This document shows, piece by piece, positions 13,059-58,829 of a stretch of DNA of 64,000 bases. The DNA is taken from contig JAFWMT010000003.1 of assembly GCA_017545525.1 (NCBI GenBank), positions 60,694 to 124,693 of the forward strand, given 5' to 3'. The stretch comes from Candidatus Saccharimonadota bacterium (GTDB lineage Bacteria; Patescibacteriota; Saccharimonadia; Saccharimonadales; Saccharimonadaceae). Position numbers and translations under genes: made by a program. Under the pieces are notes generated by a model, which saw only the letters and a program-made list of their open reading frames with translations, ran no database searches and had not been told where the DNA came from. Position 1 is the stretch's first letter; each line of letters begins with the position of its first letter.

Positions 13059-13102
13059 TATCTTATAAAAAAATCAATAGTTTTTCTGAATTTATGATCT
13101 GA

Positions 13103-13179
13103 ATGGTGGGGGTATTTGGATTCGAACCAAAGACACTGCGTGTATAAGACGCATGCTCTAACCAGCTGAGCTATACCCC
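13103..13179 (-). tRNA. tRNA-Ile (anticodon TAT)
   Basis: GGGGGTA/TACCCCC acceptor, GCTC/GAGC D-stem, anticodon stem TGCGT/ACGCA with loop CTTATAC, TTCGAAT T-loop, CCA. Confidence 0.75.
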
Positions 13180-13218
13180 CGCTACTTTATTTTACCATAA
13201 AATGATATAATGATAAGC

Positions 13219-13647
13219 ATGAACGGGATTAAAACGGCAATTCGGCGGATGAAGTTTCGGATGAAGCATGATTTTTTTTCGGTTGAAAACGTAGTATTAA
13301 TTTTAGCGATTATTTTATGTTTGGTTTGGACTTATCAATCGATTGTAGCAATGTCGAGAAACTGGAGCTTAACGGAAAAATTGGCAATGGAGAAAAAAGA
13401 GTTGGAACTTCTGACTGTGCAAGTTGAGGCGGATGAATTGGAAAATGATTATTATCGCTCGGACGAATATCAAGAACTTTTGGCGAGGAAATATCTAGAT
13501 AAAAAAATGGAGGGGGAGAATATGGTAGTATTGCCAAAAAATTCGGAAGAAGCAAAAAATAAGCATAAAAAGGTGAAAGCGGAAGCGAGTGAAGAAGATT
13601 ATTCGAATTTTGAGGAATGGATGAGATATTTATTCCCGAATTTTTAA
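13219..13647 (+). CDS. FtsB/DivIC-like septum formation initiator (bitopic, coiled coil)
   Basis: TM helix followed by a coiled coil and ...YQELLARKYLDKKMEGENMVVLP. Start set at ATG 13219, 7 nt after TATAAT. Confidence 0.5.
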   Translation: MNGIKTAIRRMKFRMKHDFFSVENVVLILAIILCLVWTYQSIVAMSRNWSLTEKLAMEKKELELLTVQVEADELENDYYRSDEYQELLARKYLDKKMEGENMVVLPKNSEEAKNKHKKVKAEASEEDYSNFEEWMRYLFPNF

Positions 13648-13689
13648 AGATTTTTTTAAATTTTTTTATGCTTATGGTATAATGAAAAT

Positions 13690-15701: not shown

Positions 15702-15704
15702 AAA

Positions 15705-27885: not shown

Positions 27886-27914
27886 TTGACAAAACGAGTG
27901 TTGTGTGATATAAT
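27886..27914 (+). promoter_or_regulatory. perfect consensus sigma70 promoter with extended -10
   Basis: TTGACA-17 nt-TATAAT preceded by TG (gtgTGaTATAAT). Confidence 0.7.
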
Positions 27915-27976
27915 GGGAGTATATGGCACGTTAACAGTTGGTTTAGTTTGTTTCTTCAGATAAGGAGGGAAATAAT

Positions 27977-28633
27977 ATGTCGAGGCTGAAGAGAAGAATG
28001 GACCGCGAGGCCTATATGAGAGAAGCTGAAGAAGCCAGAAGAAAGGCTGAAGCCGAAAAGATGGTTTCTTCTGTTGAGGATGAAGATAGCATCGATGCTA
28101 AGATCGATGCAAAACTTGAGGAGGCTATGGCAAAGGCCGTCAAAGAGGATACTTTACCTGGCATTCCCAAGGTGGAGGATGAATGGACTTCGGTGTTCCA
28201 GAACGAGTTCAACAAGAAATTGGCTGAACAAGTTTCTGGGAATACCGAACTGATTTCAGCCCTCTATAAGGAAACGGGTCATCTTTCCGAGAAAGTGCAA
28301 ACTCTTTCCGGCAGGATGGATAAGCTCACTAAGGAAGTAGGTGGGCTAAAGACTCGGGTAGAGAAACTTGAGAAGGGAGGTGTCGGGCTTGTTTTAACGA
28401 GGGGCGCCGACAGAACCCCTTCGAAGGTCAAGTTTATGAATGAGGAAAACTATACGGGTGAAGCCCTGATTCCTCAGGCTTATGATCCTACTCTTGGGAT
28501 TACTTGGCCAATCAAGGACCCGCGAGTTGCGGAGTTCTATGATAGTAACTACAAGGCGGCACCTTGCAAGCTGAAAAAAGGCGTAATCGAGAGAACGTTA
28601 ACCCTCGAAGAAGCCAGCAAAGCTGGGTGCTAA
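27977..28633 (+). CDS. hypothetical coiled-coil protein (218 aa)
   Basis: SD aaggaggg. Own promoter and strong terminator. Codon choice differs from neighbours. Confidence 0.6.
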   Translation: MSRLKRRMDREAYMREAEEARRKAEAEKMVSSVEDEDSIDAKIDAKLEEAMAKAVKEDTLPGIPKVEDEWTSVFQNEFNKKLAEQVSGNTELISALYKETGHLSEKVQTLSGRMDKLTKEVGGLKTRVEKLEKGGVGLVLTRGADRTPSKVKFMNEENYTGEALIPQAYDPTLGITWPIKDPRVAEFYDSNYKAAPCKLKKGVIERTLTLEEASKAGC

Positions 28634-28923: not shown

Positions 28924-30888
28924 ATGATATTCTCAATCATTTTAAGGTGGGTTTTACCTGCCTTTGCGATTTATTTTCTTTTCACTGTGATTTCGAGCTT
29001 TCAGCATGAAGTCGAAGTGTTAGAAGTCGCAAAAAAGGAGAAAACGCTGTTTGCGGTCATAGGAAGAAGAGCAAAGCGATTTTTCGCTTGCTCGACAACT
29101 GATGACCGGGGGAGAGGCTTATTGATTGGTATCGTCGTAGGAGCGATAAATTACTTCGCTTATTATACGGCTGTCATAAGATGGCCTTATTTTCGAGTCA
29201 TAGCAGTGGTTGGGACAGTTGTTTTAGTTGCTTTTCTTATCTCTTTGGTTAGAAGAGCGCTCGACAACGATCTCGGCCCAGCTGAGATTCGAGAATTAAT
29301 CCCGTTTTTGCTTTTAGCGTGCATTTATTGCGTTACGTTAAAAGTGACAATGCCGCTTATCCTTGCGGGGTTAAATATCAATGATTTCTGGAAGTACGCG
29401 ATGAGGGCGCTTCCTTGGATTTTATTGATTATAGCCATCGTTTGGATGGTGGTCAACTACTGCCTGTATCTTGTTGAGGACGTTTACGTCGAAAACGAGA
29501 AGAAGCGCGGAAGTGCTTCTAAGGCAGTAGCGACGCTTGCCGTTGTTCTTGGGGCGATTTTGATTGCAATGGCAATTATTAAGTTACCCTGGGGGACGGT
29601 AGTCGCCTCGGCAGCGTATTCTGATAGTGGCGTGAAAATCGCCGAATCAGAAGCCGCCGGGAAAACCTCACCTTCTTCGGGAGCCTCTTCGGAGGTTTCC
29701 GAGAAGGAAGCGGAGGCGGAGATGGTCAAGGTCTTGACCGTTCCGAAGCTCACTCCGGAAGAGCTCGAGAAACTGACCGTGAATAAATATGCGGCCATTT
29801 CCGAGACGCTTCTCGATTCTTCTTTGTCTCCTAAGGACAAGGCAAGAACTGAGGAAACCGGCTTCTTCGATGCTCTGACTTTTGGATTCGCGTCCAAAAG
29901 TGACGAGGAGAAATTCTCGGAGCTCGAGGAAGAAGTGCTTCGGAACCCCGTTTACGGGGTAACCTTGGCGAAGGCGCTGAAAGGCAAGTACATCGGCTCC
30001 AAAAAGCTTGGAGACTTGAACCCCTGGATGGGGGAGATGGTCGAAAAGAATAAGGCCGGAGTATTTATTTGGTGTGAATATAGGGACGATTCTGGGACGA
30101 TTTATGTCACTCCAGAATATCGCCTCTATGCGGCGACGTTATGTACGTTCTTGGAACGTTTAACGCCGCAGGGTATCAAAAAGCTTCAGACGGTCGAGAA
30201 CTGGTGTTTAAATAGTGCCATGAAAAATAACGACCGTCGGGGTATTGAAGCTGAGTACCAATATAAGAAAAAGGCTTTAATACTAGAGGCTGTTGGAAAG
30301 GACGGCTCAGTGATGTTTAGAATGGGCTTCAATGTCCATGATAAACGTCCGGAGTTCTTCGATGAAGAACCAGCGCCGGAACCGACTCCGGATGAACCAA
30401 TACCGACACCGGATGAGCCGACGCCGACACCTGGACCGGAACCGACTCCGGAACCGACTCCGGAACCGACTCCAGAACCGCCGACACCGACTCCAGAACC
30501 GCCGACACCGACACCGGAGCCGCCGACACCGACGCCTCAGTATGATAAAGACCCGGAGGATGCCCCGAAGGAAAATACTGAACCGAACGATGACCCGGGT
30601 CCGGGCCCGGAAACTAACAATCCGGATGATCCTCAGCATTCAACTGAGGACCAGCCGGAAAACTCCGACCATTACCCCTCTTACGAGGAGTATCGGGAGG
30701 ACATGGAGGAGATGGAGGAAACCAATCAGAACCAGAAAACTGGGGAAGATGATAATACCCCATCGACTCCGAAGCCATCGGAGGATACAGTTGTCGACAA
30801 TCCTGACGACAACATGTATACTCCGGTGACACCAGGAGAAACTGTCAACGATGAAACGTCTGACGGGCATATCACGTTGGACGACTAA
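28924..30888 (+). CDS. polytopic membrane protein with soluble domain, PEPT-repeat linker and acidic tail (654 aa)
   Basis: SD aaggagg. ~6 N-terminal TM helices. PEPTPEPTPEPTPEPPTPTPEPPTPTPEPPTPTP. No recognisable family. Confidence 0.65.
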   Translation: MIFSIILRWVLPAFAIYFLFTVISSFQHEVEVLEVAKKEKTLFAVIGRRAKRFFACSTTDDRGRGLLIGIVVGAINYFAYYTAVIRWPYFRVIAVVGTVVLVAFLISLVRRALDNDLGPAEIRELIPFLLLACIYCVTLKVTMPLILAGLNINDFWKYAMRALPWILLIIAIVWMVVNYCLYLVEDVYVENEKKRGSASKAVATLAVVLGAILIAMAIIKLPWGTVVASAAYSDSGVKIAESEAAGKTSPSSGASSEVSEKEAEAEMVKVLTVPKLTPEELEKLTVNKYAAISETLLDSSLSPKDKARTEETGFFDALTFGFASKSDEEKFSELEEEVLRNPVYGVTLAKALKGKYIGSKKLGDLNPWMGEMVEKNKAGVFIWCEYRDDSGTIYVTPEYRLYAATLCTFLERLTPQGIKKLQTVENWCLNSAMKNNDRRGIEAEYQYKKKALILEAVGKDGSVMFRMGFNVHDKRPEFFDEEPAPEPTPDEPIPTPDEPTPTPGPEPTPEPTPEPTPEPPTPTPEPPTPTPEPPTPTPQYDKDPEDAPKENTEPNDDPGPGPETNNPDDPQHSTEDQPENSDHYPSYEEYREDMEEMEETNQNQKTGEDDNTPSTPKPSEDTVVDNPDDNMYTPVTPGETVNDETSDGHITLDD

Positions 30889-31025: not shown

Positions 31026-31094
31026 TTAGACGAAGATTAACAATTCGACTAGCAAAAACAAATGATTATTAATATTAGAAAGGAAATATCTGCT

Positions 31095-32357
31095 ATGAAA
31101 AGTATTTATAAATCTATTTTAGGTGTTTCTGCTGCTGCGATTGTAATGGCAGGAACGCTTGCTCCTGTGATGGTGCAAGCTTGGGGCGATTCTGATAATG
31201 GTCGTCCAAGTTATACACTTGATCAGATCAATAATGGTGATTTAGGAGACACCATTACGTTTAACTCGATTTCAAACGGTAAAATCGGGGATGAAAAGAA
31301 CTTCGTAGGCGCGAAGGTTGCCGGTGCTACGGTTGAAACCTGGAACGCTAATACGATTAAGGTGAAAGATGGCGAAACTTACACGATTCGTTTATTCGTT
31401 CACAATAACAGCCCTAAGGGTATGGACGCAATCGCGAAAGGCGTGAAAGCGACTTTTTCGATTCCTACCACAGTAGCTAAATCTCAAACGATTATCGGTT
31501 ACATCGATTCTTCGAATGCAGCTCCTAGCCGTTACTGGGATGAAGTTACTTTAGAGGCTGACGAAGACGTCTATCTTGAATATGTAGACGGTTCGGCTAA
31601 GTATAACAACAATAAAGGTACTTTCAAACTTTCTAACGATGTAATTATCTCGGGTGCTACCCTTGGTTATACCTCGATGAATGGTGAAATTCCTGGTTGT
31701 TATGAATATTCTGGTGTAGTAACAATTGATGTGAAAGTTCACAGTTCGGTTGCTGCTAAGGTTGCAAAACAGGTTCGTATCAAAGGTACTAAAACTTGGG
31801 GCGAATCGATTGAAGCAAAAGTTGGTGACGAAGTTGAATATCAGATCGAATACGAAAACTTATTGGCTGAGCAAGTTAATGATGTAATGATTCGTGACGT
31901 TCTTCCAACCAACGTTGAATATGTGAAAGATTCTACCTATCTTTATAACGCAAACCATAAAGATGGTATAAAGATGAAAGAGAATATTCTTACAACTACC
32001 GGTATTAATATCGGTAATTATACTGCAAAAAGTAACGCTTACATTCGTTTCACGGGTAAAGTAGTTGACAATACTTTAGCTTGTGGTTCGAACCAATTAG
32101 TAAACTGGGCGAGCGCGACGGTTTCGAGCTCTTCGGTCAAAGATGCAGTTTATAAAGATGACGCTTCGGTAATGGTAACGAAGGATGGTGATGTCTGTAA
32201 AGATAAACCAACTCCTACTCCAACTCCAACTCCAGAAACTCCGAAGACGATTGTCAATACCGGTGCAGGTACGATTGTGACTGGTGCGATTGGCGCTGGT
32301 TCGGTTGTAACTACACTTGGTTACTACATTGCTAGTCGAAAAAAGTTAATGAAATAA
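31095..32357 (+). CDS. secreted surface protein with DUF11-like repeat domain and LPXTG-like (IVNTG) sorting signal
   Basis: Signal peptide MKSIYKSILGVSAAAIVMAG...A. VGDEVEYQIEYEN...IRDVLP..VEYV.S signature. PTPTPTPTPETP linker. IVNTG + hydrophobic stretch + SRKKLMK. Confidence 0.65.
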   Translation: MKSIYKSILGVSAAAIVMAGTLAPVMVQAWGDSDNGRPSYTLDQINNGDLGDTITFNSISNGKIGDEKNFVGAKVAGATVETWNANTIKVKDGETYTIRLFVHNNSPKGMDAIAKGVKATFSIPTTVAKSQTIIGYIDSSNAAPSRYWDEVTLEADEDVYLEYVDGSAKYNNNKGTFKLSNDVIISGATLGYTSMNGEIPGCYEYSGVVTIDVKVHSSVAAKVAKQVRIKGTKTWGESIEAKVGDEVEYQIEYENLLAEQVNDVMIRDVLPTNVEYVKDSTYLYNANHKDGIKMKENILTTTGINIGNYTAKSNAYIRFTGKVVDNTLACGSNQLVNWASATVSSSSVKDAVYKDDASVMVTKDGDVCKDKPTPTPTPTPETPKTIVNTGAGTIVTGAIGAGSVVTTLGYYIASRKKLMK

Positions 32358-45057: not shown

Positions 45058-46209
45058 ATGGAGATTAGTATGAAAAAGAAGAGCAAAACTAAAAAGACTA
45101 GGAATAAAGAAGCACAAATATTTGGCGGAATAGCTTTGGTGGCTTTTATGGTGGCGACATTTTTTACGATTTTTGGACTTTCGCGTACGGTAATAGAAAT
45201 GGAGGAAGTGGCGATTGAAAAGACGCCAGAAGCAATTTTGGCGAAGGCCGGAGTTGCGGAAGGAAAAAATATTGCGTTACCGGTAATATATTATGACCAG
45301 AGAGCAGATGAGTGCGTGGATTTGTATGATGTGGGACTTTCGGACGCGCTTTATGCGCGACAGTTTGAATGGACGGAATGTGGTTATCATAACAGACAAC
45401 TAGAACAAGGGTTGGTAGACTTTTATCTTGATGATAATTATTTACCAGTAGCGAAAGGCGGGAATTTGGTACCAAATCGAGGAGTCAAAGATATGACGAG
45501 GTGGTTTTCAACGGTTGAAGGTAAGAGCTTTAGCTATTCTGGTGTTTTAGGGATGAACTATCGTAATGATGGGGCAGAATTCTCATTCTATCATGACAAT
45601 TTTTATCCTCTAGATGAAGTTGATTTTTCGAAGGGAGATTTTACGAGCAAAGATGGACATAACCATTTGTTTACAATGAGTTTTGCGGTACCGTTTACGG
45701 TTTTAAATAGCGGGAATGAGGATTTCGTAGTTACAGCAGATGATGACACGTTTGTTTATGTTGGAAATGAATTAGTAATTGATATGGGCGGAGTACACGA
45801 GGCGATGACGGGAAGATTTCGAATCAGCAAAGAAGGAGAAATTTACGCTGGAGTAAATGGCGAAGAATTAGCTTATACGGGAGTTAATGTAGAAAGTGGC
45901 GAAGGTTCGATTGTGAGAATTTTCCATGCGGATAGAGATTCGAGCGAGTCAGTTTTCAACATTGTCTTTACGGAAATGAATTTGAGCGTAATGAATACGA
46001 CTTTGGCAAAACAAGAAGGAATTCAGATTGCCTACGATCCGACTGACCCGACTTATGTGGCGCCGCTAGGCGAAAGTAAAGTCTTTAAACCTGATAATAC
46101 AAAAAGTTATATTATCTTAGCGACGATTGAAGGATTCTTGGTTGTAATTTTTGCGATTCTGATGTCGTTTGCAATTAAATTTATGGTAGAGAGAAGAACT
46201 AAAAAATAA
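45058..46209 (+). CDS. fibro-slime/PA14-like domain protein with N- and C-terminal TM segments
   Basis: HLFTMSFAVPF...FVVTADDDTFVYVGNELVIDMGGVH resembles the fibro-slime signature. The start could instead be ATG 45070. Confidence 0.5.
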   Translation: MEISMKKKSKTKKTRNKEAQIFGGIALVAFMVATFFTIFGLSRTVIEMEEVAIEKTPEAILAKAGVAEGKNIALPVIYYDQRADECVDLYDVGLSDALYARQFEWTECGYHNRQLEQGLVDFYLDDNYLPVAKGGNLVPNRGVKDMTRWFSTVEGKSFSYSGVLGMNYRNDGAEFSFYHDNFYPLDEVDFSKGDFTSKDGHNHLFTMSFAVPFTVLNSGNEDFVVTADDDTFVYVGNELVIDMGGVHEAMTGRFRISKEGEIYAGVNGEELAYTGVNVESGEGSIVRIFHADRDSSESVFNIVFTEMNLSVMNTTLAKQEGIQIAYDPTDPTYVAPLGESKVFKPDNTKSYIILATIEGFLVVIFAILMSFAIKFMVERRTKK

Positions 46210-48266: not shown

Positions 48267-51200
48267 TTATAATCTTGGTGAAAGTTCGCGCGAATAAGCA
48301 GAAACCAGTTTAAGAGACATATTTTTCTCGGATTTCTTGTTCCCCCATAGATAAAGAGTATTGTCGAAATTAATAATTTCGGCAGAAATGATTGAGTTAG
48401 CACCAGTTGCTGCACCATAAGTGCGATTAGCGATTAGTTTATTGGCAATAATTGCGCCGTTGATGGCTAATTGAACGGAGTTTTCTGGATTATTAATATT
48501 TTTTCCAATTTCCGATTCGCTTAAGCTCATGTCAAAGCTGTTACCACAAGTTACAATCGTATTTGCTACCAGTAATGCATCAATTCTCTCTACATTGCAA
48601 TTAATATAAATGTTCTCTTTGGCGTAAATGATAATTTTTGGCATATCTTCTAATGTGGAATATGTTCCACTATATGTTAGATTTCCACTAATCATGATGT
48701 TTTTAGCTTCTACGACGTGCGTGCCAGTAGTAAGTTCGGCGGTGCCAGAGACTACTAAGTTCATATTGTCATCTTTATAATAAGCATCTTTGGTAGTATC
48801 ATCGATTTTCGTTAAGGTGAGAGGATTAGTCGGAGTTATTGGATCTTTACTGTTAAGGTTATCAATAATATTTGCTTTATCATCATTAACGTTTCCTTTT
48901 ATAGCGTTAGAATCAGTGAGATTTCCTACTGAACCGTTGCTACATTTATCGTTAGCGAAACTCAACGGACTTCTTAGACAATAATCTATTTTTTTCTCAG
49001 ATGCTCCGCCTGGTTCACTGACGAGACCATTGTTGCCATCGCTTCCATTGACATTGCCAAAAGAATGCCGAGGTGTCAATGTACCGTTATTATTTAAGGC
49101 ATATCCTGTGCTAGCTCCACTTACTAGACCGGTTATTCTGCCTGAAGCAATAATTCCTAATTCTCCCCATGAACCGAATATATGATAGCTATCGTTTGAA
49201 GTTGATCCTAACAGGTTTTTCTTTTTGCTTATTCCAGTTGTGATGCTTCCGGCTGAATAGATATTTCCTCCCCAAACTTGAAGACTTGGGCGTTTAGCGA
49301 CATCGAAGCATTCTGAGTCGGAAATTGCCCAATGATGATTACCTTCACTATCGGAATAATTATCTTTTCCTCCACTGTTGCTTGGATAAATAGCTGAAGC
49401 TATACAGATTCTTGAGCCAGCAGTAAGATCTTGAATAAAGAACGTCGCTGAATAATTATTGGATTGACCATCTTTGTTGCTATTACTATTTAAGGTACTA
49501 TCTATAATTGTTGAATCCGATGCATTGGCATTAGTATTTACTTTGGCATATCCGCATATTTCATTGTTGGCACCATTGCTGAACCCAAAATATTGGCAAA
49601 GATTATCGTCTTTGGAATTTCCATATGATCTAGTCCCTTCTTTTATAGTGCCTCCAGCATTGGGGTTGTAAACAATTATTCTTCTCCTGGTAGGTGCTTT
49701 TGTGGCATATTTTTCATTTTCTGAATTAGTAGTGAGATCATTTTTTCTTGGTTTGACATTAACATTATATTTAATAGAAATCTCTTCACCGGCATAAATG
49801 GCAGTATCACCATCTTCTGAATTTGTCTTGTCTTTGCTAGTAATTTCTGTTGAGGTAATAAAATTATATGGTACTCGTATGTAGGCTGTGTCATCTTTCG
49901 AGTCGATATCAACGTCGTAGACGACGACATTTTTAGTTTCAGTTGTGGGAATAGTATTTGACGAGAAGTCGTCTTCAGCTCCAGTTCTTTCGACAGCTAC
50001 TTGGTAAGATTTGATGGAGGATGATACTGAAAATGGTGCGGTTTTTTTGTCGCCACTATTTGCGTTCGTGAGAGCTTTACCAAAATAGTTTGTTTTTCCT
50101 ACATCGCTCGAACTAACTGAACGGGTATCGGTTGTTTCTACAACTTTGGATGGGTCGCCGACAGTTGGTCCGTCATTGTACACATCGTAATTGTCGTATG
50201 TGCCAGAAATACGGAAGCCATTATTCCAATCTGGTCCATCGTAGCAATCGTTGAAGGCTGTGCCCAAAGTTTTTCGCCAAGTTTTAGGTTCAGTAGAAGA
50301 AGGGCACTCAGTATTTTTAATTTTGACTTGTCCGTCTATAGTGACTCCATATGCAGACTGAACGGTTGGTTCGTAGGTTGCGCGAAAATTAACTTGATCG
50401 CCAGGTTTTGCATAGACTTCTTTTTGATAACTATTGTATTTATCGACGGAAGTATTGATGACTTCCATTTTTATGAAATCGGTTGGGATAACATTATTTG
50501 TTACTACAGCACAGGCAGTTGTAGTTGCGTTTTTAATAGTTCTAGCAGCATTATTACTGGGTTTAAAACTTAGACTTTCACAAATTCTGAAACCCAACAT
50601 GCCTGGAGATATATTTTTATAGATGCTTTCACTGACTTCGTTTGGATTGTTGGTTGTAAAATTTTCGGTACTAGTTTTAATTGTGCCATTACCTTCGATG
50701 GTCGAAGTTTTTGTAACTTCGTAGTCGATTGAACCCTTTGTGCCATCAATTCTTTTTAGATAGTGTTCGAATCCTACGGAACAACTAGGAGAACAATTAT
50801 TAATGACATGGGTTACTTCTTTATTATATTGTACGAAGTCGGTAGTTTTCTTTTTTGAATTGTTGATGGAGTCATAATTAAGGGTCGTTGTATTACTGGA
50901 CACCTCGGCTATTCGTGACATGCCCATGAACGTAGTAGCGATAGCTTTGGCACAAGCAGTAACAGTTGCTGTAGCATTTTCCCCTCCACTTCCCCAAGTG
51001 TGGAAAGTGAGGCGATAGCACAGGGTTTGGCCAGGGTAGATTTTTTTGGTTTGAAGAAATACGTTGTGATGATCTTCGTCGCCATCAGTTCCATAACTTG
51101 GGCTGGATTTAAGATTTTCATCTGCTGGTATGTTTCCCCAACTGCCGTTGTTGAGTTTCTTTTGAGCCGTGAAACTACTGGTTCCGCCGCCACCGGTTTT

Positions 51201-52736
51201 TTTAATGCTAAGCATAAATCTTACGTCACAGCCGGTATTTTCACATTCAATTTCTAATGGACTGCCATCAGCAGTTTTATTTGTATTAACGAATCCAGTA
51301 CTAATGCGAGGTTTACCGTTGTTAGCGCTAAAAGAGTTTCCTTCTACGACGGCAGCACGACCTTTAAAAGAGTTCATTTTGTATACGGCATATACGGTTA
51401 CGTGATTAGCCATACTTTCAATTGTAATTTTATTTTTATCAATGGATTTAATGGTTTGTTCGTTTACTTTATTACCATTTGAAAGGTATGTTCCGGTTGG
51501 TTCTGCTCTAAAGCCCAGTAACGAGTATTGTGTGTTTGTGCGTGCTGAGCCGGTAACATCTTTCAATACTTCGTCGGTACCTAGACTACCGTAAATTGGA
51601 CCAACATCGCTGAAAGTGTCTTCCATAGAATTACCATTTTCATCAACTGCTTTAATAATTAACTTAGGTCTGATGTATGTAAGGACTAGTTTAGTTTGCC
51701 TAGTTGAGCAAGAAGCTTGCCATGTACCTGATACCATACCAGGATAACTATCTTTAATACAACCAAACACGTAGACATTGTTGGCGATAAATCTGACGTA
51801 ATGGGCAGGATCGTGGTTCTCATCTATATCTATATCTACACTTGTGTTACCTGCGGCTTTTTGTTCAGTGACGTAGTTAATAAAGTCTTCCACATCTAAC
51901 TTAAGAGAAATGGGGTTTCCAACTCCGGCCCACACATAGGGTTCTTTGCCTAAGCCACTCGTCGTCAACCATGTACCAAGGCCGTATGTTGGCAAATTCT
52001 TAAAATAATTTACTGATGTTCTATTGACGTTTCCAGTGTCTGCTGGGATGTAACCACTGCCAGAACCATAATCTGGGTTTAAACTGAAGGAAGTTATATT
52101 GCCGGAAACTGTTACTGCTGAAGCGACGCTCTTTTTATCTTCGATTTTCCAACCGTCATTATTACAATTTGGCAAGAGGATTTGACGAGTACTTGCATTA
52201 TGCCAGGTTTGTCCATTTGCTGCTACATAGCTTGTGCCTAGTGGACATGCACTAGTGGAAGAATTGACGCCATCTTGAATATTTATAAAACTTTTGTCCA
52301 TTCCTGCTGAGTTTTGTGGAGTCATGGCACAAGAATTTCCAGCTGTAAAGAGATAAATATCTATAGTGTTTTTCTTTACGCCTATATATGAAGCACCATC
52401 GTTATAGGCTCCGTCGGTACTATTATCGCTGGAAAACCAAGTTGCTGATTGAGTATAACCACCACCTTGCCATTGGTTATCACTACCTTTACAACTTCTA
52501 CAAGCTGATACAATAGAATCTACGGCACTACTCGAAACTCCACCATTGGCCGTTTCGGTTACGCTGTGTGCTTCTAGACTTGAACCACCAGCTTCGTAAG
52601 CGTCTTTGACGCAGTCATAAATTGAAGTCCATTGGTTTGCTGCACTGACGTCATAAATATTCCAATTGATTGAATTTAGCGCAAAGATGAATAATCCAAT
52701 GGATATGAACGAAAAATGTTTAATTTTGATTTTCAT
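48267..52736 (-). CDS. giant secreted protein A (1489 aa), paralog of 53748-58829
   Basis: Signal peptide. Cys-containing N-domain. One GY/LLGF-type repeat. Two tandem Cys-bracketed modules (50503-51371). Conserved C-terminal ~350 aa. Confidence 0.8.
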   Translation of the reverse strand: MKIKIKHFSFISIGLFIFALNSINWNIYDVSAANQWTSIYDCVKDAYEAGGSSLEAHSVTETANGGVSSSAVDSIVSACRSCKGSDNQWQGGGYTQSATWFSSDNSTDGAYNDGASYIGVKKNTIDIYLFTAGNSCAMTPQNSAGMDKSFINIQDGVNSSTSACPLGTSYVAANGQTWHNASTRQILLPNCNNDGWKIEDKKSVASAVTVSGNITSFSLNPDYGSGSGYIPADTGNVNRTSVNYFKNLPTYGLGTWLTTSGLGKEPYVWAGVGNPISLKLDVEDFINYVTEQKAAGNTSVDIDIDENHDPAHYVRFIANNVYVFGCIKDSYPGMVSGTWQASCSTRQTKLVLTYIRPKLIIKAVDENGNSMEDTFSDVGPIYGSLGTDEVLKDVTGSARTNTQYSLLGFRAEPTGTYLSNGNKVNEQTIKSIDKNKITIESMANHVTVYAVYKMNSFKGRAAVVEGNSFSANNGKPRISTGFVNTNKTADGSPLEIECENTGCDVRFMLSIKKTGGGGTSSFTAQKKLNNGSWGNIPADENLKSSPSYGTDGDEDHHNVFLQTKKIYPGQTLCYRLTFHTWGSGGENATATVTACAKAIATTFMGMSRIAEVSSNTTTLNYDSINNSKKKTTDFVQYNKEVTHVINNCSPSCSVGFEHYLKRIDGTKGSIDYEVTKTSTIEGNGTIKTSTENFTTNNPNEVSESIYKNISPGMLGFRICESLSFKPSNNAARTIKNATTTACAVVTNNVIPTDFIKMEVINTSVDKYNSYQKEVYAKPGDQVNFRATYEPTVQSAYGVTIDGQVKIKNTECPSSTEPKTWRKTLGTAFNDCYDGPDWNNGFRISGTYDNYDVYNDGPTVGDPSKVVETTDTRSVSSSDVGKTNYFGKALTNANSGDKKTAPFSVSSSIKSYQVAVERTGAEDDFSSNTIPTTETKNVVVYDVDIDSKDDTAYIRVPYNFITSTEITSKDKTNSEDGDTAIYAGEEISIKYNVNVKPRKNDLTTNSENEKYATKAPTRRRIIVYNPNAGGTIKEGTRSYGNSKDDNLCQYFGFSNGANNEICGYAKVNTNANASDSTIIDSTLNSNSNKDGQSNNYSATFFIQDLTAGSRICIASAIYPSNSGGKDNYSDSEGNHHWAISDSECFDVAKRPSLQVWGGNIYSAGSITTGISKKKNLLGSTSNDSYHIFGSWGELGIIASGRITGLVSGASTGYALNNNGTLTPRHSFGNVNGSDGNNGLVSEPGGASEKKIDYCLRSPLSFANDKCSNGSVGNLTDSNAIKGNVNDDKANIIDNLNSKDPITPTNPLTLTKIDDTTKDAYYKDDNMNLVVSGTAELTTGTHVVEAKNIMISGNLTYSGTYSTLEDMPKIIIYAKENIYINCNVERIDALLVANTIVTCGNSFDMSLSESEIGKNINNPENSVQLAINGAIIANKLIANRTYGAATGANSIISAEIINFDNTLYLWGNKKSEKNMSLKLVSAYSRELSPRL

Positions 52737-53207
52737 CTGAAATCTCCATTACATTGTTCGAGTGGGTTTTCATCGTTATACATATATTCATAAACGCAAA
52801 GTTCTGATGTTGTTGTCTCACTATTGTCTAAATCATGAATTGTATGGACATCGCTCAAAATTTGTTCACTACATTCCCATTCGCAAAAAGCATCTAGTGC
52901 TGAAATACGATATTTTAGATATTTGATTTTTTCATCTGTATTACTTGTACCGTTGATGTATTTGTCATATAAAGCAATTACCGGTTCCTTGCCATTTGAT
53001 TGATAAATTTTATAAGCTTCGTTACGAATTTCATATTCTTTGGAAGTAAGAATTTTATCTAACTCACTTTCAACATTTCCATTATTGTCTTTTGTAATGA
53101 AAATTATAGCAATAATGATTAGTAATATGATTGCTATGCTGATGGAACAAAAAAGAATGATTTTTAGCTTATTATTTCCTTGCACCTGCTCTGACATATA
53201 GTAATAT
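52733..53207 (-). CDS. small bitopic Cys-motif protein A' (158 aa), paralog of 53294-53758
   Basis: MSEQVQGNNKLKIILFCSISIAIILLIIIAIIF TM. KIKYLKYRI...FCEWECSEQILSDVHT...SELCVY...CN. Its stop overlaps the giant-gene ATG (ATGA). Confidence 0.65.
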
Positions 53208-53293
53208 ATTACCATAACCGTTTTAAAAAATCTATATTTTAAATTTAAATAAATTGTGGATTTTTGAAAATGTTTGTGGTAATATGAAAACAT
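53208..53293. promoter_or_regulatory. 86-bp AT-rich divergent control region
   Basis: TGGTAATAT lies 9 nt before ATG 53294. The reverse strand has GGTAATATATTACTAT before ATG 53207. Confidence 0.5.
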
Positions 53294-53758
53294 ATGAAAG
53301 GTCATGAAAAGAAAAGAGAGGTTGGGCTGAAAATCATTTTGGGGATTTTGATTGGAGCGGCGTTAGTATTGCTCATTGCAATTATCTGCGTGAAGAATTT
53401 AATTTCGGGAAATGATGAAGAATTGGCGCAACTGCGAAGCGTAGAAAGTAAGGCAAACGCAATTTACGAGGATGAAGGCGTAAAACATACAGTCGAATAT
53501 TATGATGAATTTATAGAAAAAGAAGAAACAGCAGAAGGAAAAATTAGATATTTAAAGTCGCGCATTAAGAATTTTGATTTTTGGTGTGAGTGGGATTGTA
53601 GCGAACAGATTTTGACAGATGTGCATACAGTAGCGGAATTGGCCAACAACAATGCGTCAATTACGAGTGAACTTTGCGTATACCAAGAAATATATCTCGA
53701 TACTAATCCAATAGCAGGATGCAATTATACAATTGAGGGAATATCCAATGAAGAATAA
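53294..53758 (+). CDS. small bitopic Cys-motif protein B' (154 aa)
   Basis: TM helix LKIILGILIGAALVLLIAIICV. KIRYLKSRI...FWCEWDCSEQILTDVHT...SELCVY...GCN. Confidence 0.7.
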   Translation: MKGHEKKREVGLKIILGILIGAALVLLIAIICVKNLISGNDEELAQLRSVESKANAIYEDEGVKHTVEYYDEFIEKEETAEGKIRYLKSRIKNFDFWCEWDCSEQILTDVHTVAELANNNASITSELCVYQEIYLDTNPIAGCNYTIEGISNEE

Positions 53759-56700
53759 AAAAATGCCAAAGTTTTCAAAAATATTGTTTTTAGTCTTGAC
53801 GGTTCTTTCGTGTAGTAGCCTGACCTTAAATAATACGTGGGCAGTGCAGAATAATAGCGCAACATGGAATAATGTCTTTGATTGTGTAAAGGCGGCTTAT
53901 GAAAAAGAAGGGAAAAATGTTTCAGATTATGGTATAACGTCTAGCAATTATGGATCTAAAGCTGTAGCATCTGTCGTATCTGCTTGTAATGTATGCTTAA
54001 ATAACAATAAACATTTGGGCGCCTCTCAGTCGGCTGCGTGGTTTAATAAAAGTTCAAGCAATTCATATTTGAAAGATGCGATTTTCGATCAAGCAACGGA
54101 CGATTCGTTGGTCAAAGGGAAAGTTTATGGCGTAGATAGTTCTGACACCGTAGATATTTATTTGAGAGTGGCTGGGCTTTTGTGTGGGATAGAGGATGTT
54201 GGAAATCCAATTGCTAGACAATTTATAAATTTACAATATTCAGAAAATAATAGTAATGATAATAATGGAAGGGCGATTGCGGGAAGTTGCCCCGAAGGGA
54301 CTACGAGAAAAGCTCCAAGTGGATCAACTTTACCTAACTGTAATAATGATGGATATAATAAAGGTAGTTTTACTCCTAATGCCCCAGTCACTAATAATAC
54401 GTTAAGAGATACTTATTATCCTCCATATACGATACCGAATGATACGGGTAACCAGAATAGGAAAAGTTTAAGTTATTTAAATAGTGCCATTGCTTATAAT
54501 GATAGTAATGTTCTAAGAAGTGGTTCGATGGTTTCGTATGGTTGGTCATCAACTGGTGGTAATACTCAGAAAGTAGTGGTAAATATTAAAAAATTTAAAA
54601 ATGATAGTGCAGTAACAAAAACTCGACCAGATGGAAAACACTATGTAAATTATACTCAGATGGTTTATATTTTTGGGTGTGTCCCTAATGCTTACCCAGG
54701 GATGTCTTTGAATATAAGTGAAGGTATAAGTTGGTTTTATGGGTGTAGGACTCATAAGAGTAAATTATTTATGAGATTTTATGATCCGATATTAACGTTG
54801 AAAGCAGTGGATACTGAGGGTAATTCTTTATCAAGTGTAATAAAAGATAAAGTTGTATATGGAGATGAAGCTGAAATAAAAGAAGTTTCAATAACAAGAA
54901 GAACAAAAACAGGATATATTTTCAAGGGGTTTGCGACGTCTTTAGCTAATGCAAAAGATGGAAAATTTGTGACGGCTACGGATTCTAATAATAATACGAG
55001 ACATTATGTTTCTGGAACGAAAAGCGTAAAGGAGACATTTCACAATATAAAGTTATCAGAAAATAAGACTAGATATGCGGTTTATTTGAACGCCAATGAA
55101 ATTGAAAATATGTTGGTCGCTGATGCAGCGAAGGAAGATGGAACTATCCTGGAGGCAAATATTGATTCCGATTCCGCTGGCTATAACGAAAATGCGACAG
55201 TTGATAGAAGAGAATATAGTACTCCAACTGGATATACTTTTAGAGGTTGGCGAGAAAAAGCAAATACTGGCGATCTTACGACAGGAAATACCTATACTAC
55301 TAAATTAACGGGTTCTGATAAAAAGATTTTTGCAATATATTCTAGGAATTCTTTTAAAGGTGAGGCTAAGGCCACAAAAAACGGAACAACAACTAGCACT
55401 ACTACGGGGTTTGTAGACACGAGTAAAACAGCTTCTAATTTAGAAATCACTAGTTGTGATAGTTCAGGATGTAAAGTTGATTTTGAGCTTAATATACAAA
55501 GAGTTGGGGCTGGCGGATCGACGGATTATTATGTAGAAAAGAAAATTAATAATGGACAATGGTTAGATATTCCAACTGATGAAGGTGAGTTTAGTGGAAG
55601 CAGTAGTGGTGGGAATGTCTTTAAAATAACAAAAACATTGAGCCCTGGTCAGACAATGTGTTATAGGCTTACATTTAACCCACGCGGTGTGCATGAGAAT
55701 AACTATGAAGCAACCGTAGCGGTCTGCGCGGAAGCAGTGAAATCTTTTGAGGGTTTGGCTAGAGTGGCGGAGGGTACCGCGATGGTAGATGAGGCGACAA
55801 AGAATACTACTGGTTGGGTGAATGAAGATGCCACGGCACAACCTAATCCGTTGAGCGTAGGCTGTGGTAATGATGGATGTCAAGTTCGTTTTGTATTAAG
55901 TATAAAGAAGAAGGGCGCAGGTGGGACTACTGCTTATACGATACAAAAGAAAGTTGATAATGGCGATTGGGGCGATATACCGGTAGATGAAGGTGGTGCT
56001 ACTGGTAATAGCCCGGGCGTTGAGGATGGGTCGACTCACCATAATGTTTTCAAAATTACAAAAAAGTTAAATCCTGGGCAGCAAATGTGTTATAGATTGA
56101 CGTTTAAGCCTTACGGAGATAAAAGTAGTAGCACTACGGCGACTGTAACGACTTGTGCAAAGGCAGATTTATCTAAATTCCAGGGGATGTCTCGGGTTGG
56201 AAGTGGGTCTAGTTCCGGTTGGTACGAAAGTGGGTATGCTAGTAAGAGCGCTTCGGCGGCATATTATACAATAGATAATTGTGACGATGGATGTTCGGCA
56301 AAATTTGAACATTATTTAAAGAGGACAGAGGGAACAGGTTCGACACAGTATAGAATAAGAAGAATAATTAATAAGAGTGGTTCATATGCAGTAAATGAGA
56401 AAATAGAAGAATTTTCGGGCATTAGCAATGGTTCAGGGAAAAAAGTAAATACTTATACGAAGAATAATCTTTATCCGGGCGATAAAGTATGTGAATATTT
56501 ATATTTCCGGCCGAATAATTCGATGGATACTTCGACTAATCCGTGGGCGTATAGTGCGAGTTATGTATCGACGAAAGCTTGTGTTTTAGCGTTAGGAAAA
56601 TGGCAACCTGGTGGACCGGATGATCCTGGAAGTAGTGCGGTAGAAAATGCATCGTTCTTAAATATCAAAGTGAAGAATAAGACTTTGGGTGGAGATTATA

Positions 56701-58829
56701 AAAATGACTATGTTTATGGGAAACCTGGAGATGAAATAGTTTGGAGGGCGAAATACGAGCCTACTTTGCAGAGTCGCATTAATATGGTTCCGGAAAGAAT
56801 AGGTATAAATATGAGCAGTAGTAGCGATTGGCTTAGTAATAGTTTTGAAAATTCTGACAATAATTTAATATATGTATTGTTTAATCAAAATAAAGGTTCA
56901 AATTTAGGATATTGGAATAATGCATTTAGCGTAAAGCGTGGGTTTGCTAGTAATAGTTTAATAAATTATTGTCGCGACACTTCAGAATGTTTTGCTGCGG
57001 CAGAAAATATTACGCCAACTAATAAATATGAAGTTGGAAATTCTGAAAACAGGTGGGAATTAAATAGTTACAATGATTACAGAACTGGCGGTATTAGTAA
57101 TAGTGAAGTTGGAAGAAAATTGAGTGAAACAGCATTAACTAATGCTAGTGATTTGACAACATCAACACCTAGTCAAGTAATCTTTCGAGCCGTGACTGAT
57201 AGCGATGGGAAGATGTGGAATATCGGCAATGTGATTACAAGGACTATTACGGCTTCAGCGGAAGCAATGGTACCATATAATTTCGGTACTGGTGCAAGGG
57301 TGGTAGATGAACAGAAACCGATTTATGCAGGGGAGGAAAATGAGATAAAGATTGAAATTGACATAAAACCGAAGCACAATAATTTAACTATGAAAGATGG
57401 AGATGAAAATTATGCAACTAAGGCTAGTGAGAAATGGAAAGTTATCATATACAGTGGAGATGAATCAGGCGGTTGGGTGAGTGGCGAGGATCAAAGTGAT
57501 TTGTGTTCACATTATTATCCGGCTGATTGTAGTTATTCTAAGGAAGGAAGTGGAACGTTAAATAATTACTCGACCTTAAGCGACATGTTCAAAACAAGTG
57601 TTAATTCAAGAACATTAAGCTTTTATGCGCAAGATTTGGCGGCTGGTTCGAAGTTATGTTTTGCTGCGGCGGTATATCCGGCTAGTAGTGGAGCGGACGA
57701 TAATTTGTCTTCGACTGGTGATAAAAAATGGAGAGTTTCGGAGTCTAAATGCTATCCGATTGCTAAACGTCCAAGTCTTCAGGTTTGGGGTGGGAACATC
57801 TATTCGGCAGGCAATATCACGACCGGAGTAAGTAAAAAGAAGAATTTAGCCGGATCGGCTTCGGGTGATGGCTATTATATCTTTGGCTCGTGGGGAGAGC
57901 TAGGTGTTATCGCGTCTGGAACAATAAAAGGTATGGCTAGTGGAACCAGCACGGGATATGCCACAAATAATAACGGAACGTTAGCCCCGAGGTATACTTT
58001 TAAAAATGGTGGAAGTACGGCTAGTTACAATGGTAATGGTAATAATGGTTTGGGTGTTTCGCCTGGTGGAACTTCTGAGGGGACAATAAATTATTGTTTG
58101 AGGGGCATACTTAGCTTTGCTAATAATAGTTGTAATGGTAGCAGTGGGTTCACGGGGAAAATTACTGACGCGAATACCGTTAAAGGAAATGTAAGTGATG
58201 ATAAAAATAATATAATAAATAGTTTCGGTAGTAAGACGCGTTATGATGTTGTGGATGATACTATTAATTTGCCGAGAAACGTGGAAGAAAGAAACGAGGC
58301 GGAGGTTAATGGCGTCCACTACAGAAAAGGTGGCAATTTGATAATTTCTAGTAGTACGGTGGATGCTGGGACAACTTATGTGGCAGAAGCTAATAATATT
58401 ATGATTAGTGGCAACCTTATTTATGGTGGGCAATATCAAACATTAGAAGGTGTGCCTAAGATAATTATTTATGCGGAAAATAATATTTATATTAATTGCA
58501 ATGTAGAGAGGATAGATGCGTTATTAGTGGCAAAGACCGTGGTAACTTGTGGGAATGATTTCAATATGAGCCTTAGTGATTCAAATATTGTCAGTGGCAT
58601 AAATAATCTGGAGAATTCAGTACAATTGATGATGAATGGTGCGATTATTGCTAACAAACTAATTGCTAACCGTACTTACGGTGCAGCGACTGGGGCTAAT
58701 TCAATGATATCTGCTGAGATTATTAACTTTGACAATACACTTTATCTTTGGGGGAGCAGAAGATCTGAAGCGAATACGTCAGTTAAATTGACGGATGCTT
58801 ACACTCGCGAAATATCGCCGAGATCATAA
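53748..58829 (+). CDS. giant secreted protein B (~1693 aa)
   Basis: Start set at ATG 53748 (the track start 53733 is TTG). Signal peptide. Two GYxFxGW (Listeria-Bacteroides-type) repeats. Three tandem Cys-bracketed modules (55347-56592). C-terminal region conserved with protein A. Confidence 0.8.
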   Translation: MKNKKMPKFSKILFLVLTVLSCSSLTLNNTWAVQNNSATWNNVFDCVKAAYEKEGKNVSDYGITSSNYGSKAVASVVSACNVCLNNNKHLGASQSAAWFNKSSSNSYLKDAIFDQATDDSLVKGKVYGVDSSDTVDIYLRVAGLLCGIEDVGNPIARQFINLQYSENNSNDNNGRAIAGSCPEGTTRKAPSGSTLPNCNNDGYNKGSFTPNAPVTNNTLRDTYYPPYTIPNDTGNQNRKSLSYLNSAIAYNDSNVLRSGSMVSYGWSSTGGNTQKVVVNIKKFKNDSAVTKTRPDGKHYVNYTQMVYIFGCVPNAYPGMSLNISEGISWFYGCRTHKSKLFMRFYDPILTLKAVDTEGNSLSSVIKDKVVYGDEAEIKEVSITRRTKTGYIFKGFATSLANAKDGKFVTATDSNNNTRHYVSGTKSVKETFHNIKLSENKTRYAVYLNANEIENMLVADAAKEDGTILEANIDSDSAGYNENATVDRREYSTPTGYTFRGWREKANTGDLTTGNTYTTKLTGSDKKIFAIYSRNSFKGEAKATKNGTTTSTTTGFVDTSKTASNLEITSCDSSGCKVDFELNIQRVGAGGSTDYYVEKKINNGQWLDIPTDEGEFSGSSSGGNVFKITKTLSPGQTMCYRLTFNPRGVHENNYEATVAVCAEAVKSFEGLARVAEGTAMVDEATKNTTGWVNEDATAQPNPLSVGCGNDGCQVRFVLSIKKKGAGGTTAYTIQKKVDNGDWGDIPVDEGGATGNSPGVEDGSTHHNVFKITKKLNPGQQMCYRLTFKPYGDKSSSTTATVTTCAKADLSKFQGMSRVGSGSSSGWYESGYASKSASAAYYTIDNCDDGCSAKFEHYLKRTEGTGSTQYRIRRIINKSGSYAVNEKIEEFSGISNGSGKKVNTYTKNNLYPGDKVCEYLYFRPNNSMDTSTNPWAYSASYVSTKACVLALGKWQPGGPDDPGSSAVENASFLNIKVKNKTLGGDYKNDYVYGKPGDEIVWRAKYEPTLQSRINMVPERIGINMSSSSDWLSNSFENSDNNLIYVLFNQNKGSNLGYWNNAFSVKRGFASNSLINYCRDTSECFAAAENITPTNKYEVGNSENRWELNSYNDYRTGGISNSEVGRKLSETALTNASDLTTSTPSQVIFRAVTDSDGKMWNIGNVITRTITASAEAMVPYNFGTGARVVDEQKPIYAGEENEIKIEIDIKPKHNNLTMKDGDENYATKASEKWKVIIYSGDESGGWVSGEDQSDLCSHYYPADCSYSKEGSGTLNNYSTLSDMFKTSVNSRTLSFYAQDLAAGSKLCFAAAVYPASSGADDNLSSTGDKKWRVSESKCYPIAKRPSLQVWGGNIYSAGNITTGVSKKKNLAGSASGDGYYIFGSWGELGVIASGTIKGMASGTSTGYATNNNGTLAPRYTFKNGGSTASYNGNGNNGLGVSPGGTSEGTINYCLRGILSFANNSCNGSSGFTGKITDANTVKGNVSDDKNNIINSFGSKTRYDVVDDTINLPRNVEERNEAEVNGVHYRKGGNLIISSSTVDAGTTYVAEANNIMISGNLIYGGQYQTLEGVPKIIIYAENNIYINCNVERIDALLVAKTVVTCGNDFNMSLSDSNIVSGINNLENSVQLMMNGAIIANKLIANRTYGAATGANSMISAEIINFDNTLYLWGSRRSEANTSVKLTDAYTREISPRS

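Follow-up and report, generated by a model that had tools for sequence, protein, structure and literature searches.

How Saccharibacteria and other epibionts of the candidate phyla radiation (CPR) recognise and hold their host bacteria is an open question and, to our knowledge, the host-binding protein on the main type IV pilus (T4P), T4P-1, has not been identified so far. A locus of a Candidatus Saccharimonadota bacterium (GenBank assembly GCA_017545525.1, contig JAFWMT010000003.1) raises this question in a concrete form. Within the window, i.e. the stretch of 64,000 nucleotides (nt) between positions 60,694 and 124,693 of this contig, two operons point away from each other, and each consists of a gene encoding a small membrane protein followed by a gene encoding a giant secreted protein. 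What are the proteins of this two-gene cassette, and what could they do? The two genes define a family that was previously unannotated, i.e. two protein families for annotators to name. Its large protein combines a variable head with a constant C-terminal end, and its genes stand directly before the pilus gene pilM in most relatives. This position in a pilus operon is the strongest functional lead. The family itself and its pilus-operon link are of more note than the mirror-image duplication for which the locus had been singled out by an earlier annotation based on the sequence of the window alone (hereafter the sequence-only reading).

The features of operons A and B are the following (window coordinates; aa, amino acids; ORF, open reading frame; Ig, immunoglobulin; TPR, tetratricopeptide repeat):

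48267-52736, minus strand: giant A, 1489 aa (ORF list; match to the C-terminal HMM with E 7e-148), with, in this order, a Sec signal peptide, a Cys-containing N-terminal head, a degenerate Flg_new-like segment, two Cys-bracketed Ig-like modules, a beta-sandwich stalk and the conserved C-terminal domain
48270-49379, minus strand: conserved, family-defining C-terminal domain of giant A (aa 1120-1489, from alignments), ending in ...YSRELSPRL
48270-48302, minus strand: terminal 11 aa of giant A (from the conservation of the tail)
50499-51344, minus strand: two tandem Cys-bracketed Ig-like modules of giant A, about 135 aa each (aa 465-746, from the jackhmmer domain table)
52733-53197, minus strand: small partner A, 154 aa, whose stop codon overlaps the ATG of giant A (ATGA), with a short basic N-terminus, a single transmembrane helix, an extracytoplasmic TPR-like helical domain and 4 Cys
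53198-53293: spacer common to both operons, 96 base pairs (bp), GC content 0.177
53294-53758, plus strand: small partner B, 154 aa, with the architecture of small partner A, its last 11 nt overlapping the start of giant B
53748-58829, plus strand: giant B, 1693 aa (ORF list; AlphaFold2 model and Foldseek search of the C-terminal part)
aa 1-32 of giant B: signal peptide
aa ~33-345 of giant B: Cys-containing N-terminal head
aa ~346-533 of giant B: two Flg_new-like GYxFxG[WF] segments
55347-56540, plus strand: three tandem Cys-bracketed Ig-like modules of giant B, about 135 aa each (aa 534-931, from the jackhmmer domain table)
aa ~932-1323 of giant B: Ig-like stalk
57717-58829, plus strand: conserved C-terminal domain and terminal peptide of giant B (aa 1324-1693), ending in ...AYTREISPRS
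58794-58826, plus strand: last 11 aa of giant B

The sequence-only reading had described a divergent pair of operons, each with a small bitopic protein and a giant one, and this description stands (48267-53197 on the minus strand, 53294-58829 on the plus strand). It had placed the start of small gene A at 53207, which is out of frame. The in-frame ATG lies at 53197, and the spacer therefore measures 96 bp (53198-53293) instead of the 86 bp (53208-53293) given before. The ATGA overlap at 52733-52736 and the ATG at 53748 within the 3' end of small gene B were both recovered, the latter as an overlap of 11 nt (53748-53758). In addition, Shine-Dalgarno-like GGAG and GAGG boxes are found 8-14 nt 5' of the ATGs of the giants. 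Together with the overlaps, they are consistent with a translational coupling from the small to the giant gene. The number of cysteines in the mature giants is even, with 26 for A and 30 for B. The tandem Cys-bracketed modules reported earlier were found in both giants, three in B and two in A. As for the Listeria-Bacteroides-type GYxFxG(W/F) repeats, two are present in B, but none in A with the strict pattern. The corresponding Pfam model Flg_new (PF09479) remains below its gathering threshold on giant B (18 bits vs. a cutoff of 27, E-value 0.003) and has no match on giant A in the Pfam search.

None of the four proteins has a significant match in Pfam, NCBIfam, PHROGs or PADLOC, and PDB sequence searches with giant B and with a profile of the C-terminal domain gave no significant match either, in agreement with the sequence-only reading, in which the small partner, the N-domain and the C-terminal region could not be assigned to any named family. 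The C-terminal ~530 aa of giant B nevertheless match 87 protein clusters, typically of about 900 aa and without Pfam domain. From a scan of one genome per GTDB species with the C-terminal profile, 202 loci with relatives were identified, nearly all of them in Saccharibacteria/Saccharimonadales. Context counts were taken over 82 distinct loci, and L-numbers (L001, etc.) designate loci of relatives. The large members of the family are usually 600-900 aa long. The name "giant" thus suits the two proteins of the window (1489 and 1693 aa), but such a size is limited to an animal-gut lineage (the window, L001, L002 and L007-L019). Similarly, the duplicated module is real but not peculiar to this genome, as the cassette is spread across Saccharibacteria. 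Some family-bearing contigs come from metagenome-assembled genomes (MAGs) labelled Dongiaceae, Thermomicrobiales, Verrucomicrobiia, Parcubacteria and Nomurabacteria (L054, L067, L073, L038 and L084), and L038, L054 and L073 also hold a typical Saccharimonadales pilus block. These labels likely reflect binning contamination or loose naming and not a true spread beyond Saccharibacteria.

The small gene travels with the large one. A Candidatus Saccharibacteria MAG encodes a hypothetical protein identical to small protein B, and a word-indexed protein search with small protein B found no match besides itself. An exhaustive profile search with both small proteins reached 15 cluster representatives, all of 150-205 aa. 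At L001, L002, L003/L004, L005 and L006, the small homolog is each time followed by a large gene with the same C-terminal domain. The two genes overlap by 1-14 nt in most of these cases and join without gap in L008. More generally, a bitopic gene of 150-300 aa immediately precedes most complete members, and the overlap often measures 1 or 4 nt. Over the 82 loci, 67 large genes are preceded on the same strand by an ORF of 100-330 aa with an N-terminal transmembrane helix. Moreover, 41 of the 51 matches of the small-family hidden Markov model (HMM) adjoin a large family gene, immediately on its 5' side, the other 10 being weak matches. The small family is thus not mostly found away from large genes, and the small protein keeps the status of dedicated partner that it had been given.

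The genes next to the pair point to the type IV pilus. At 41 of the 82 loci, the large gene is directly followed by pilM in the same orientation, with a gap of 15-81 bp (median 50). In 6 further loci, pilN is found ~1.1 kb downstream, with room for an undetected pilM, which brings the total to ~47 of 82. The order after the pair is pilM, pilN, pilO, a 74-aa gene, pilB, pilT and pilC. On the upstream side, a block EFP-TlyA-YchF was found in 28 out of 31 loci with a pilM-linked pair. As YchF is divergent, the pair starts a transcription unit that runs into pilM. This block is also present in Southlakia epibionticum, where YchF adjoins PilM and no pair stands between them. The pair is therefore an accessory cassette heading the pilus operon, and not a part of the core machine. 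Likewise, the annotated T4P locus one of TM7x starts at pilM1 and does not include such a pair. A word-indexed search with a diverse C-terminal profile, saturated by its limit on candidates, revealed no link to TM7x or Southlakia. In the gut lineage, the cassette lies between TsaB-TsaE-Mur ligase and RadA-RuvC-RuvA. Type IV pili are essential or important for the attachment of epibionts to their hosts (PMC10633639, PMC12206443, PMC9894109). Since the cassette heads the T4P operon in most relatives, it is a candidate host-attachment device.

The architecture of the large protein is that of an exported protein with two contrasting ends. All members carry Sec-type signal peptides with classic, AxA-like cleavage sites, and no prepilin signal (G↓F-x-x-x-E). 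The N-terminal regions are highly divergent among members. Three pilM-linked members show sub-threshold matches to vWA, and the same three, together with L051, possess a DxSxS motif. In L010, the match to Flg_new is significant (51 bits, above the Pfam threshold). Flg_new repeats therefore belong to the family but are degenerate in the window, where giant B stays sub-threshold. The AlphaFold2 model of aa 934-1693 of giant B (pLDDT 81, pTM 0.73) was compared with known structures by Foldseek, and matched Ig-like domains of sortase pilins, PrgB, RbmA and integrin legs (E 2e-6 to 1e-3). Because the TM-scores are low (0.1-0.18), these matches assign a generic Ig-like fold only. The signal peptides and the Ig-like stalk bear out the earlier view of the large proteins as Sec-exported modular surface proteins.

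At the other end, the terminal hexapeptide is the most conserved element of the family. Among 96 unique members, its positions are occupied by E (95%), L (80%), P/A/S, P (94%), R (96%) and F/Y/L. It forms the very end of the protein and follows the residues T-V-Y-T. The overall identity among members is ~25-30%. The family consensus of the tail is TVYTxELPPR[F/Y]-COOH, and the giants of the window end in ELSPRL and EISPRS. In both AlphaFold2 models of giant B, this tail is disordered (pLDDT <50), as expected of a segment that would fold on a partner. The last 370 aa of giant B modelled alone reached a pLDDT of 78 and a pTM of 0.82. The top rank in Foldseek was the T4P tip pilin ComZ of the Thermus competence pilus (probability 0.93-0.98, E 0.05, TM-score 0.19-0.24, 160-187 columns), followed by the HpmA secretion domain and by ice-binding-type beta-solenoids (TMt up to 0.47, E > 1). 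Structural matches to two-partner secretion (TPS) domains had a probability of at most 0.12, and a Foldseek search against viral structures gave no match. When the annotation tables of Southlakia were screened for beta-helix or ice-binding-like proteins, the only candidate was an unrelated beta-helix protein recognisable by Pfam.

The small partner is of another nature. Full-length jackhmmer searches drifted through the transmembrane helix onto pilins and onto the 74-aa protein of the pilus operon. Their counts were discarded for this reason and searches with the ectodomain only were used. Seeded from the window protein, the ectodomain search reaches 8 of the 67 partners, and seeded from the pilM-linked protein of L004, it reaches 43 of 67, among them both window proteins. 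The window subtype aligns with the rest of the small family by hhalign (94% probability, E 1e-7). The larger small-partner family aligns with the consensus TPR protein CTPR3 (98.2%, E 3e-14, 87 columns), and the window subtype alone does not align significantly with it. A separate profile search of PDB sequences ranked CTPR proteins and peptide-binding TPRs (Toc64/OM64, STI1, PP5, TOM70) highest, with weak scores (E 0.02-1). The small partner is thus predicted to be a bitopic protein with its N-terminus inside and its C-terminus outside, and with a TPR-like ectodomain of ~110 aa, i.e. ~2-3 repeats. We rejected the possibility that it is a pilin, as it has no G-1/E+5 signal and its ectodomain is an all-helical TPR. 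The CEWxC motif, presented by the sequence-only reading as the hallmark of the small protein, turned out to be specific to a subfamily: 38 of the 67 ectodomains have no cysteine at all, the CxWxC...C...C arrangement is found in a minority of the partners, and the small partners of L001, L002 and L004 do not have it.

Which part of the large protein does the small one serve? The similarity between small ectodomains tracks the similarity between the first ~235 mature residues of the large proteins, with an odds ratio (OR) of 30 overall. Within strata of C-terminal-domain similarity, the OR is still 13-16, the pairs of loci not being independent of each other. On visual inspection, heads starting with C-x2-A...S-x2-AC are found with the eight partners of the window subtype, and G-Y-F-x-N or Gly-rich YGxGWYxF heads with other partner types. 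These comparisons of sequences indicate that the variable unit is the small gene plus the head, and the constant unit the C-terminal domain. As the compared parts are contiguous on the DNA and the pairs of loci are non-independent, co-variation alone is no proof of a physical interaction. That the small protein receives the invariant tail was considered and rejected, as this protein is too variable and is absent beside some large genes. Being variable and co-varying with the head, it would rather serve the head, as a holding factor or chaperone.

Taken as a whole, the cassette recalls the tip adhesins of other pili. As a study of 2026 showed for PilC/PilY1, the adhesin is fixed on the pilus tip by its final ~10 residues, which complement the apical minor pilin with an additional beta-strand, and the same is predicted for MshQ (PMC12918778). 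These proteins and the large protein of the cassette have in common an ordinary Sec signal, a non-pilin nature, a variable N-terminal head, a conserved C-terminal domain and a short peptide at the very end, which is functionally critical in PilC/PilY1 (PMC12918778) and near-invariant in the cassette. In addition, Pseudomonas aeruginosa PilY1 contains a vWA domain, to which the sub-threshold vWA-like matches of some cassette members can be compared. PilY1 and PilC are also encoded with pilus genes, as is the cassette directly before pilM at ~47 of 82 loci, although not in the window. There is no sequence relation, however: the Pfam and NCBIfam models of PilY1/PilC are unmatched at E <= 1, and the seven-bladed beta-propeller of PilC/PilY1 has no counterpart among the matches of the C-terminal AlphaFold2 model. 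Moreover, the PilY1 gene comes after the minor pilins, whereas the cassette lies ahead of pilM. Unlike PilY1, the large protein of the cassette, whose pilus association is putative, has a dedicated TPR membrane partner. In lineages without PilY1, a solenoid-bearing tip pilin, ComZ (PMC6561018) or the cyanobacterial PilX (bioRxiv 10.64898/2026.02.12.705559), is the proposed tip plug. With ComZ as top match of the C-terminal domain, it is this fold class that ranks first, though weakly and at a non-significant E of 0.05. Both ComZ and PilX are nonetheless genuine pilins, which carry a prepilin signal and an N-terminal helix, whereas the cassette protein has a Sec signal, no pilin domain and no sequence similarity to them.

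Small TPR proteins encoded beside one large or polymerising partner, on which they act, are also known, namely the PilF/PilW/Tgl pilotins, TadD and PscG/YscG. The pilotins are outer-membrane lipoproteins with a lipobox, ~6 TPRs and a secretin as partner, whereas the cassette protein is anchored by a transmembrane helix, has an ectodomain of ~110 aa and no secretin at any locus. Chaperones of the PscG/YscG type are cytoplasmic, whereas the cassette protein is a bitopic inner-membrane protein whose partner is neither a secretin nor a needle subunit.

Our best explanation, which we hold tentatively and at a little less than an even chance, is that the large protein is a pilus-associated adhesin comparable to PilY1/MshQ, docked by its C-terminal peptide and assisted by a head-specific TPR chaperone. 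Each operon would then encode a two-component surface device. The large protein would be exported by Sec. Its lineage-variable and probably adhesive N-terminal head (Cys-rich, Flg_new-like and Ig-like here, vWA-like in some relatives) would be carried on a beta-sandwich stalk, followed by the beta-rich domain of ~370 aa and the terminal peptide. The constant C-terminal domain and the peptide would attach to a conserved partner, most likely the T4P-1 initiation/tip complex, so that the variable head is displayed at the pilus tip and binds the host bacterium. The small TPR protein, translated just before the large one from the same mRNA, would hold the head on the outer side of the membrane until the pickup of the large protein. 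The two copies of the window derive from an ancient inverted duplication and, because the heads of A and B have diverged, would confer two binding specificities.

A more far-reaching proposal, possible though rather doubtful, is that the type IV pilus of Saccharibacteria has its missing tip adhesin in this family: a new structural class docking via the invariant C-terminal ELPPR[F/Y], in which the exchangeable TPR partner and the head are swapped and duplicated as a cassette and determine to which host bacteria an epibiont can attach. Duplicated cassettes such as the pair of the window would in this case encode two host specificities. The family in any case offers concrete candidates for a tip adhesin, as it is found phylum-wide, heads the T4P-1 operon in most lineages and has an adhesin-like build. 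The exchange pattern of heads and partners could serve to predict host range from metagenomes.

Several observations weigh against a pilus-tip adhesin with its own chaperone. In the window and its gut relatives, the cassette is beside no pil gene. The pilM-linked loci are not independent, because they share the larger EFP-TlyA-YchF block, and phylogenetic inertia can explain a part of the signal. Since T4P-1 is essential in Southlakia, which has no pair there, and since the TM7x locus is also without it, pilus assembly cannot require the cassette in general. For the modelled C-terminal domain, there is no match in the PDB at E <= 0.001, and the one to ComZ is not significant. The second half of this model contains long strands of 11-13 residues, atypical of a solenoid, and because of this any assignment of the fold is tentative. 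Pro-Pro in the terminal peptide is unusual within a beta-strand. On the side of the chaperone, some large genes have no small partner (both in L007, one in L019 and the first paralogs of L001, L008 and L011), 13 Cys-containing partners form a second group not detectably related to the TPR type, and the co-variation of partner and head could come from linkage alone.

Some of these points favour an adhesin of the cell surface that does not depend on the pilus, an explanation close to the one of the sequence-only reading. In this case, the C-terminal domain and peptide would bind a conserved part of the envelope (wall, S-layer or the small membrane protein) with the head outward, and the TPR protein would be an anchor or folding factor. 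A Sec signal, an Ig-like stalk and a variable head with one constant anchoring end are a standard Gram-positive design. Tandem Ig-like stalks and Flg_new repeats are shared, as generic modules only, with Gram-positive adhesins and sortase pilins (SpaD, EbpB, PrgB and InlB-type Flg_new proteins). The location of the gut-lineage cassette away from pil genes, in the window too, the synteny of the block, which weakens the association with pilM, and the absence of the pair beside pilM in Southlakia are all in line with a pilus-independent adhesin. However, the cassette proteins end in ...ELSPR[L/S], with no LPXTG, hydrophobic segment or basic tail, and their C-terminal domain is novel and not a wall anchor. 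More generally, no wall-anchoring module (LPXTG, SLH, LysM, CWB) was found in the Pfam and NCBIfam searches. The small partner is far too variable to receive a near-invariant tail, and some large genes are partnerless. In addition, the pair consistently opens the pilM unit, on the same strand and at gaps of 15-81 bp, with YchF divergent. We regard this explanation, the main rival, as possible but not probable.

It is improbable that the large protein is a secreted or surface enzyme or effector acting on the host envelope, with a catalytic C-terminal domain (e.g. a polysaccharide lyase or hydrolase), targeting N-terminal modules and the small protein as chaperone or protective partner. Saccharibacteria have to penetrate or reshape the envelope of their host (PMC10633639). 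All structural neighbours of the C-terminal domain are beta-helix proteins, and many such folds are carbohydrate-active. Its invariant polar residues S58, E61, S75, D267, R319 and E334 (370-aa numbering) could form an active site. However, no enzyme family was matched in Pfam, NCBIfam or PDB sequences, the structural matches are non-significant, and the invariant, exact C-terminal peptide would be unexplained. The layout is also the reverse of polymorphic toxins and two-partner secretion: these have a constant N-terminus, a variable C-terminal toxin and a downstream immunity gene, whereas in the cassette the head varies, the C-terminal end is constant and the partner gene lies upstream. Finally, a structural part of the pilus machine, i.e. 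a conduit or collar that crosses the wall or S-layer and is built with the help of a TPR assembly factor, on the model of the secretin PilQ and its TPR pilotin PilF/PilW/Tgl in diderm bacteria, appears very improbable: the cassette adjoins pilMNO, and a small TPR protein with a large beta-rich protein recalls the pairing of pilotin and secretin, but there is no secretin domain, the small protein has a transmembrane anchor instead of a lipoprotein signal, and the variable N-terminal halves, the frequent duplication and the lack of a pair beside pilM in Southlakia fit an accessory adhesin.

We also considered the history of the duplication. Small proteins A and B share 43% identity (E 3e-33). 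Between the giants, the identity reaches 52% over the last ~550 aa (E 4e-158) and 30-33% in the N-terminal and middle regions (E 1e-39 and 5e-33). These pairwise alignments are far above chance, and establish the giants as the collinear paralogs they had been taken for, with the C-terminal part most conserved. The proportion of synonymous differences (pS) is 0.57-0.86 along the whole alignment of the giants, i.e. saturated, and ~0.75 in the C-terminal domain. The proportion of nonsynonymous differences (pN) amounts to 0.21-0.30 in this domain and to 0.37-0.54 outside it, and the small genes have a pS of 0.75 and a pN of 0.36. Judged by these proportions, both copies are functional and under purifying selection. 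The duplication is therefore ancient, as synonymous sites are saturated, and a recent gene conversion between the copies A and B was rejected on the same ground.

In a neighbour-joining tree of the C-terminal domains, paralogs cluster by genome (A with B in the window, and the pairs of L001, L011 and L016), and two members, in tandem or divergent, are present in 14 of the 82 loci. The duplication of the cassette is recurrent and has arisen independently several times. The locus L005 presents, between 1038 and 7375, a small gene followed by three successive large genes (966 aa; 706 aa with a faint Flg_new match; a truncated third), which suggests that more than two large genes can use one small partner. 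The duplicated module had also been described as more AT-rich than its flanks. Its GC content is indeed lower (0.377 vs. 0.407 for the rest of the window; sixth lowest among 107 windows of equal size), but the difference is modest. Horizontal import as the origin of this AT-richness was rejected, because the gap in GC is just 3 points and the flanks are syntenic in relatives.

The spacer between the operons is itself an imperfect palindrome, with arms of 47 nt (53195-53241 and 53250-53296) that are 74% complementary. A 9-mer, TGGTAATAT, has two copies in the whole 64-kb window, both of them in the spacer and in mirror image (53206-53214 on the minus strand and 53277-53285 on the plus strand), each 8 nt 5' of the ATG of a small gene. 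No Shine-Dalgarno sequence is present ahead of the ATG of the small genes. The 9-mer looks like an extended -10 box positioned for a transcription start at or beside the ATG, which suggests that the mRNAs of the small genes may be leaderless or near-leaderless. From the mirrored arrangement of TGGTAATAT-N8-ATG, the duplication brought the putative promoter along. A generic scan for promoters and terminators, which gave fewer sites than in shuffled sequence, carries no information on this promoter. The sole other match to TGNTAWWAT-N8-ATG in the window (TGATATAATGGGAGTATATG, 27906-27925, plus strand) lies 5' of an ATG at 27923. As the listed ORF 27977-28633 starts only ~50 nt further on, the match could point to one more start close to a promoter.

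The organism of the window has T4P genes, as a pilus-type cluster is found at 11418-17069, with three pilin-like genes, two of which encode textbook prepilin signals. This cluster and a ComEC gene are composed as follows:

11418-13058: PilB-like T2SSE ATPase, without MshEN domain
13210-13647: bitopic coiled-coil protein of 145 aa
13690-14787: prepilin, ...G↓FTLIEV
14769-15701: prepilin, ...G↓FTIVEL
15705-17069: PilX/PilK-like protein of 454 aa, without Glu5
6199-7641: ComEC

Near the cluster 11418-17069, no pilM, pilN, pilO, pilC or pilT was found. Its pilin-like proteins might be the natural candidates for a tip complex that receives the giants.

Other proteins were observed in or near these neighbourhoods. 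In nearly all Saccharimonadales pilus operons, a highly conserved protein of 72-107 aa (mostly 72-94) with a single transmembrane helix (MKKTDIAMIILIAS...VKVKTI...) is encoded between pilO and pilB (10472-10696 in L004, with equivalents in ~45 loci). Its equivalent in Southlakia, SEML1_0107, is essential and without family name. Immediately 5' of the pair in L003/L004 (3983-5215), from a marine member of the Saccharimonadaceae, lies a gene for a HopA1-effector-like protein (Pfam E 2e-8), observed at this locus only. In the window, the gene at 45058-46209 (plus strand) encodes a protein of 383 aa with N- and C-terminal transmembrane helices and a sub-threshold PA14/fibro-slime-like domain (E 8e-5, 22.9 bits vs. 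a cutoff of 24). It is kept 5' of TsaB-TsaE in the loci of the gut lineage, and in L037 and L070, too, it lies close to members of the family. This protein may be a further surface protein of the same neighbourhood.

Three more genes of the window deserve mention. The gene at 28924-30888 (plus strand) encodes 654 aa without Pfam match, with a multi-transmembrane N-terminal part and a long Pro/Thr/Glu-rich PEPTPEPT linker; this linker gene accounts for the local GC peak of 0.48-0.51 at 29-31 kb. At 31062-32357 (plus strand), a protein of 431 aa with a DUF11 repeat (E 4e-6) is probably located in the envelope or at the surface. Lastly, the protein of 613 aa encoded at 23631-25472 (minus strand) has a class I fructose-bisphosphate aldolase as its C-terminal half, preceded by an N-terminal extension of ~280 aa without Pfam match.

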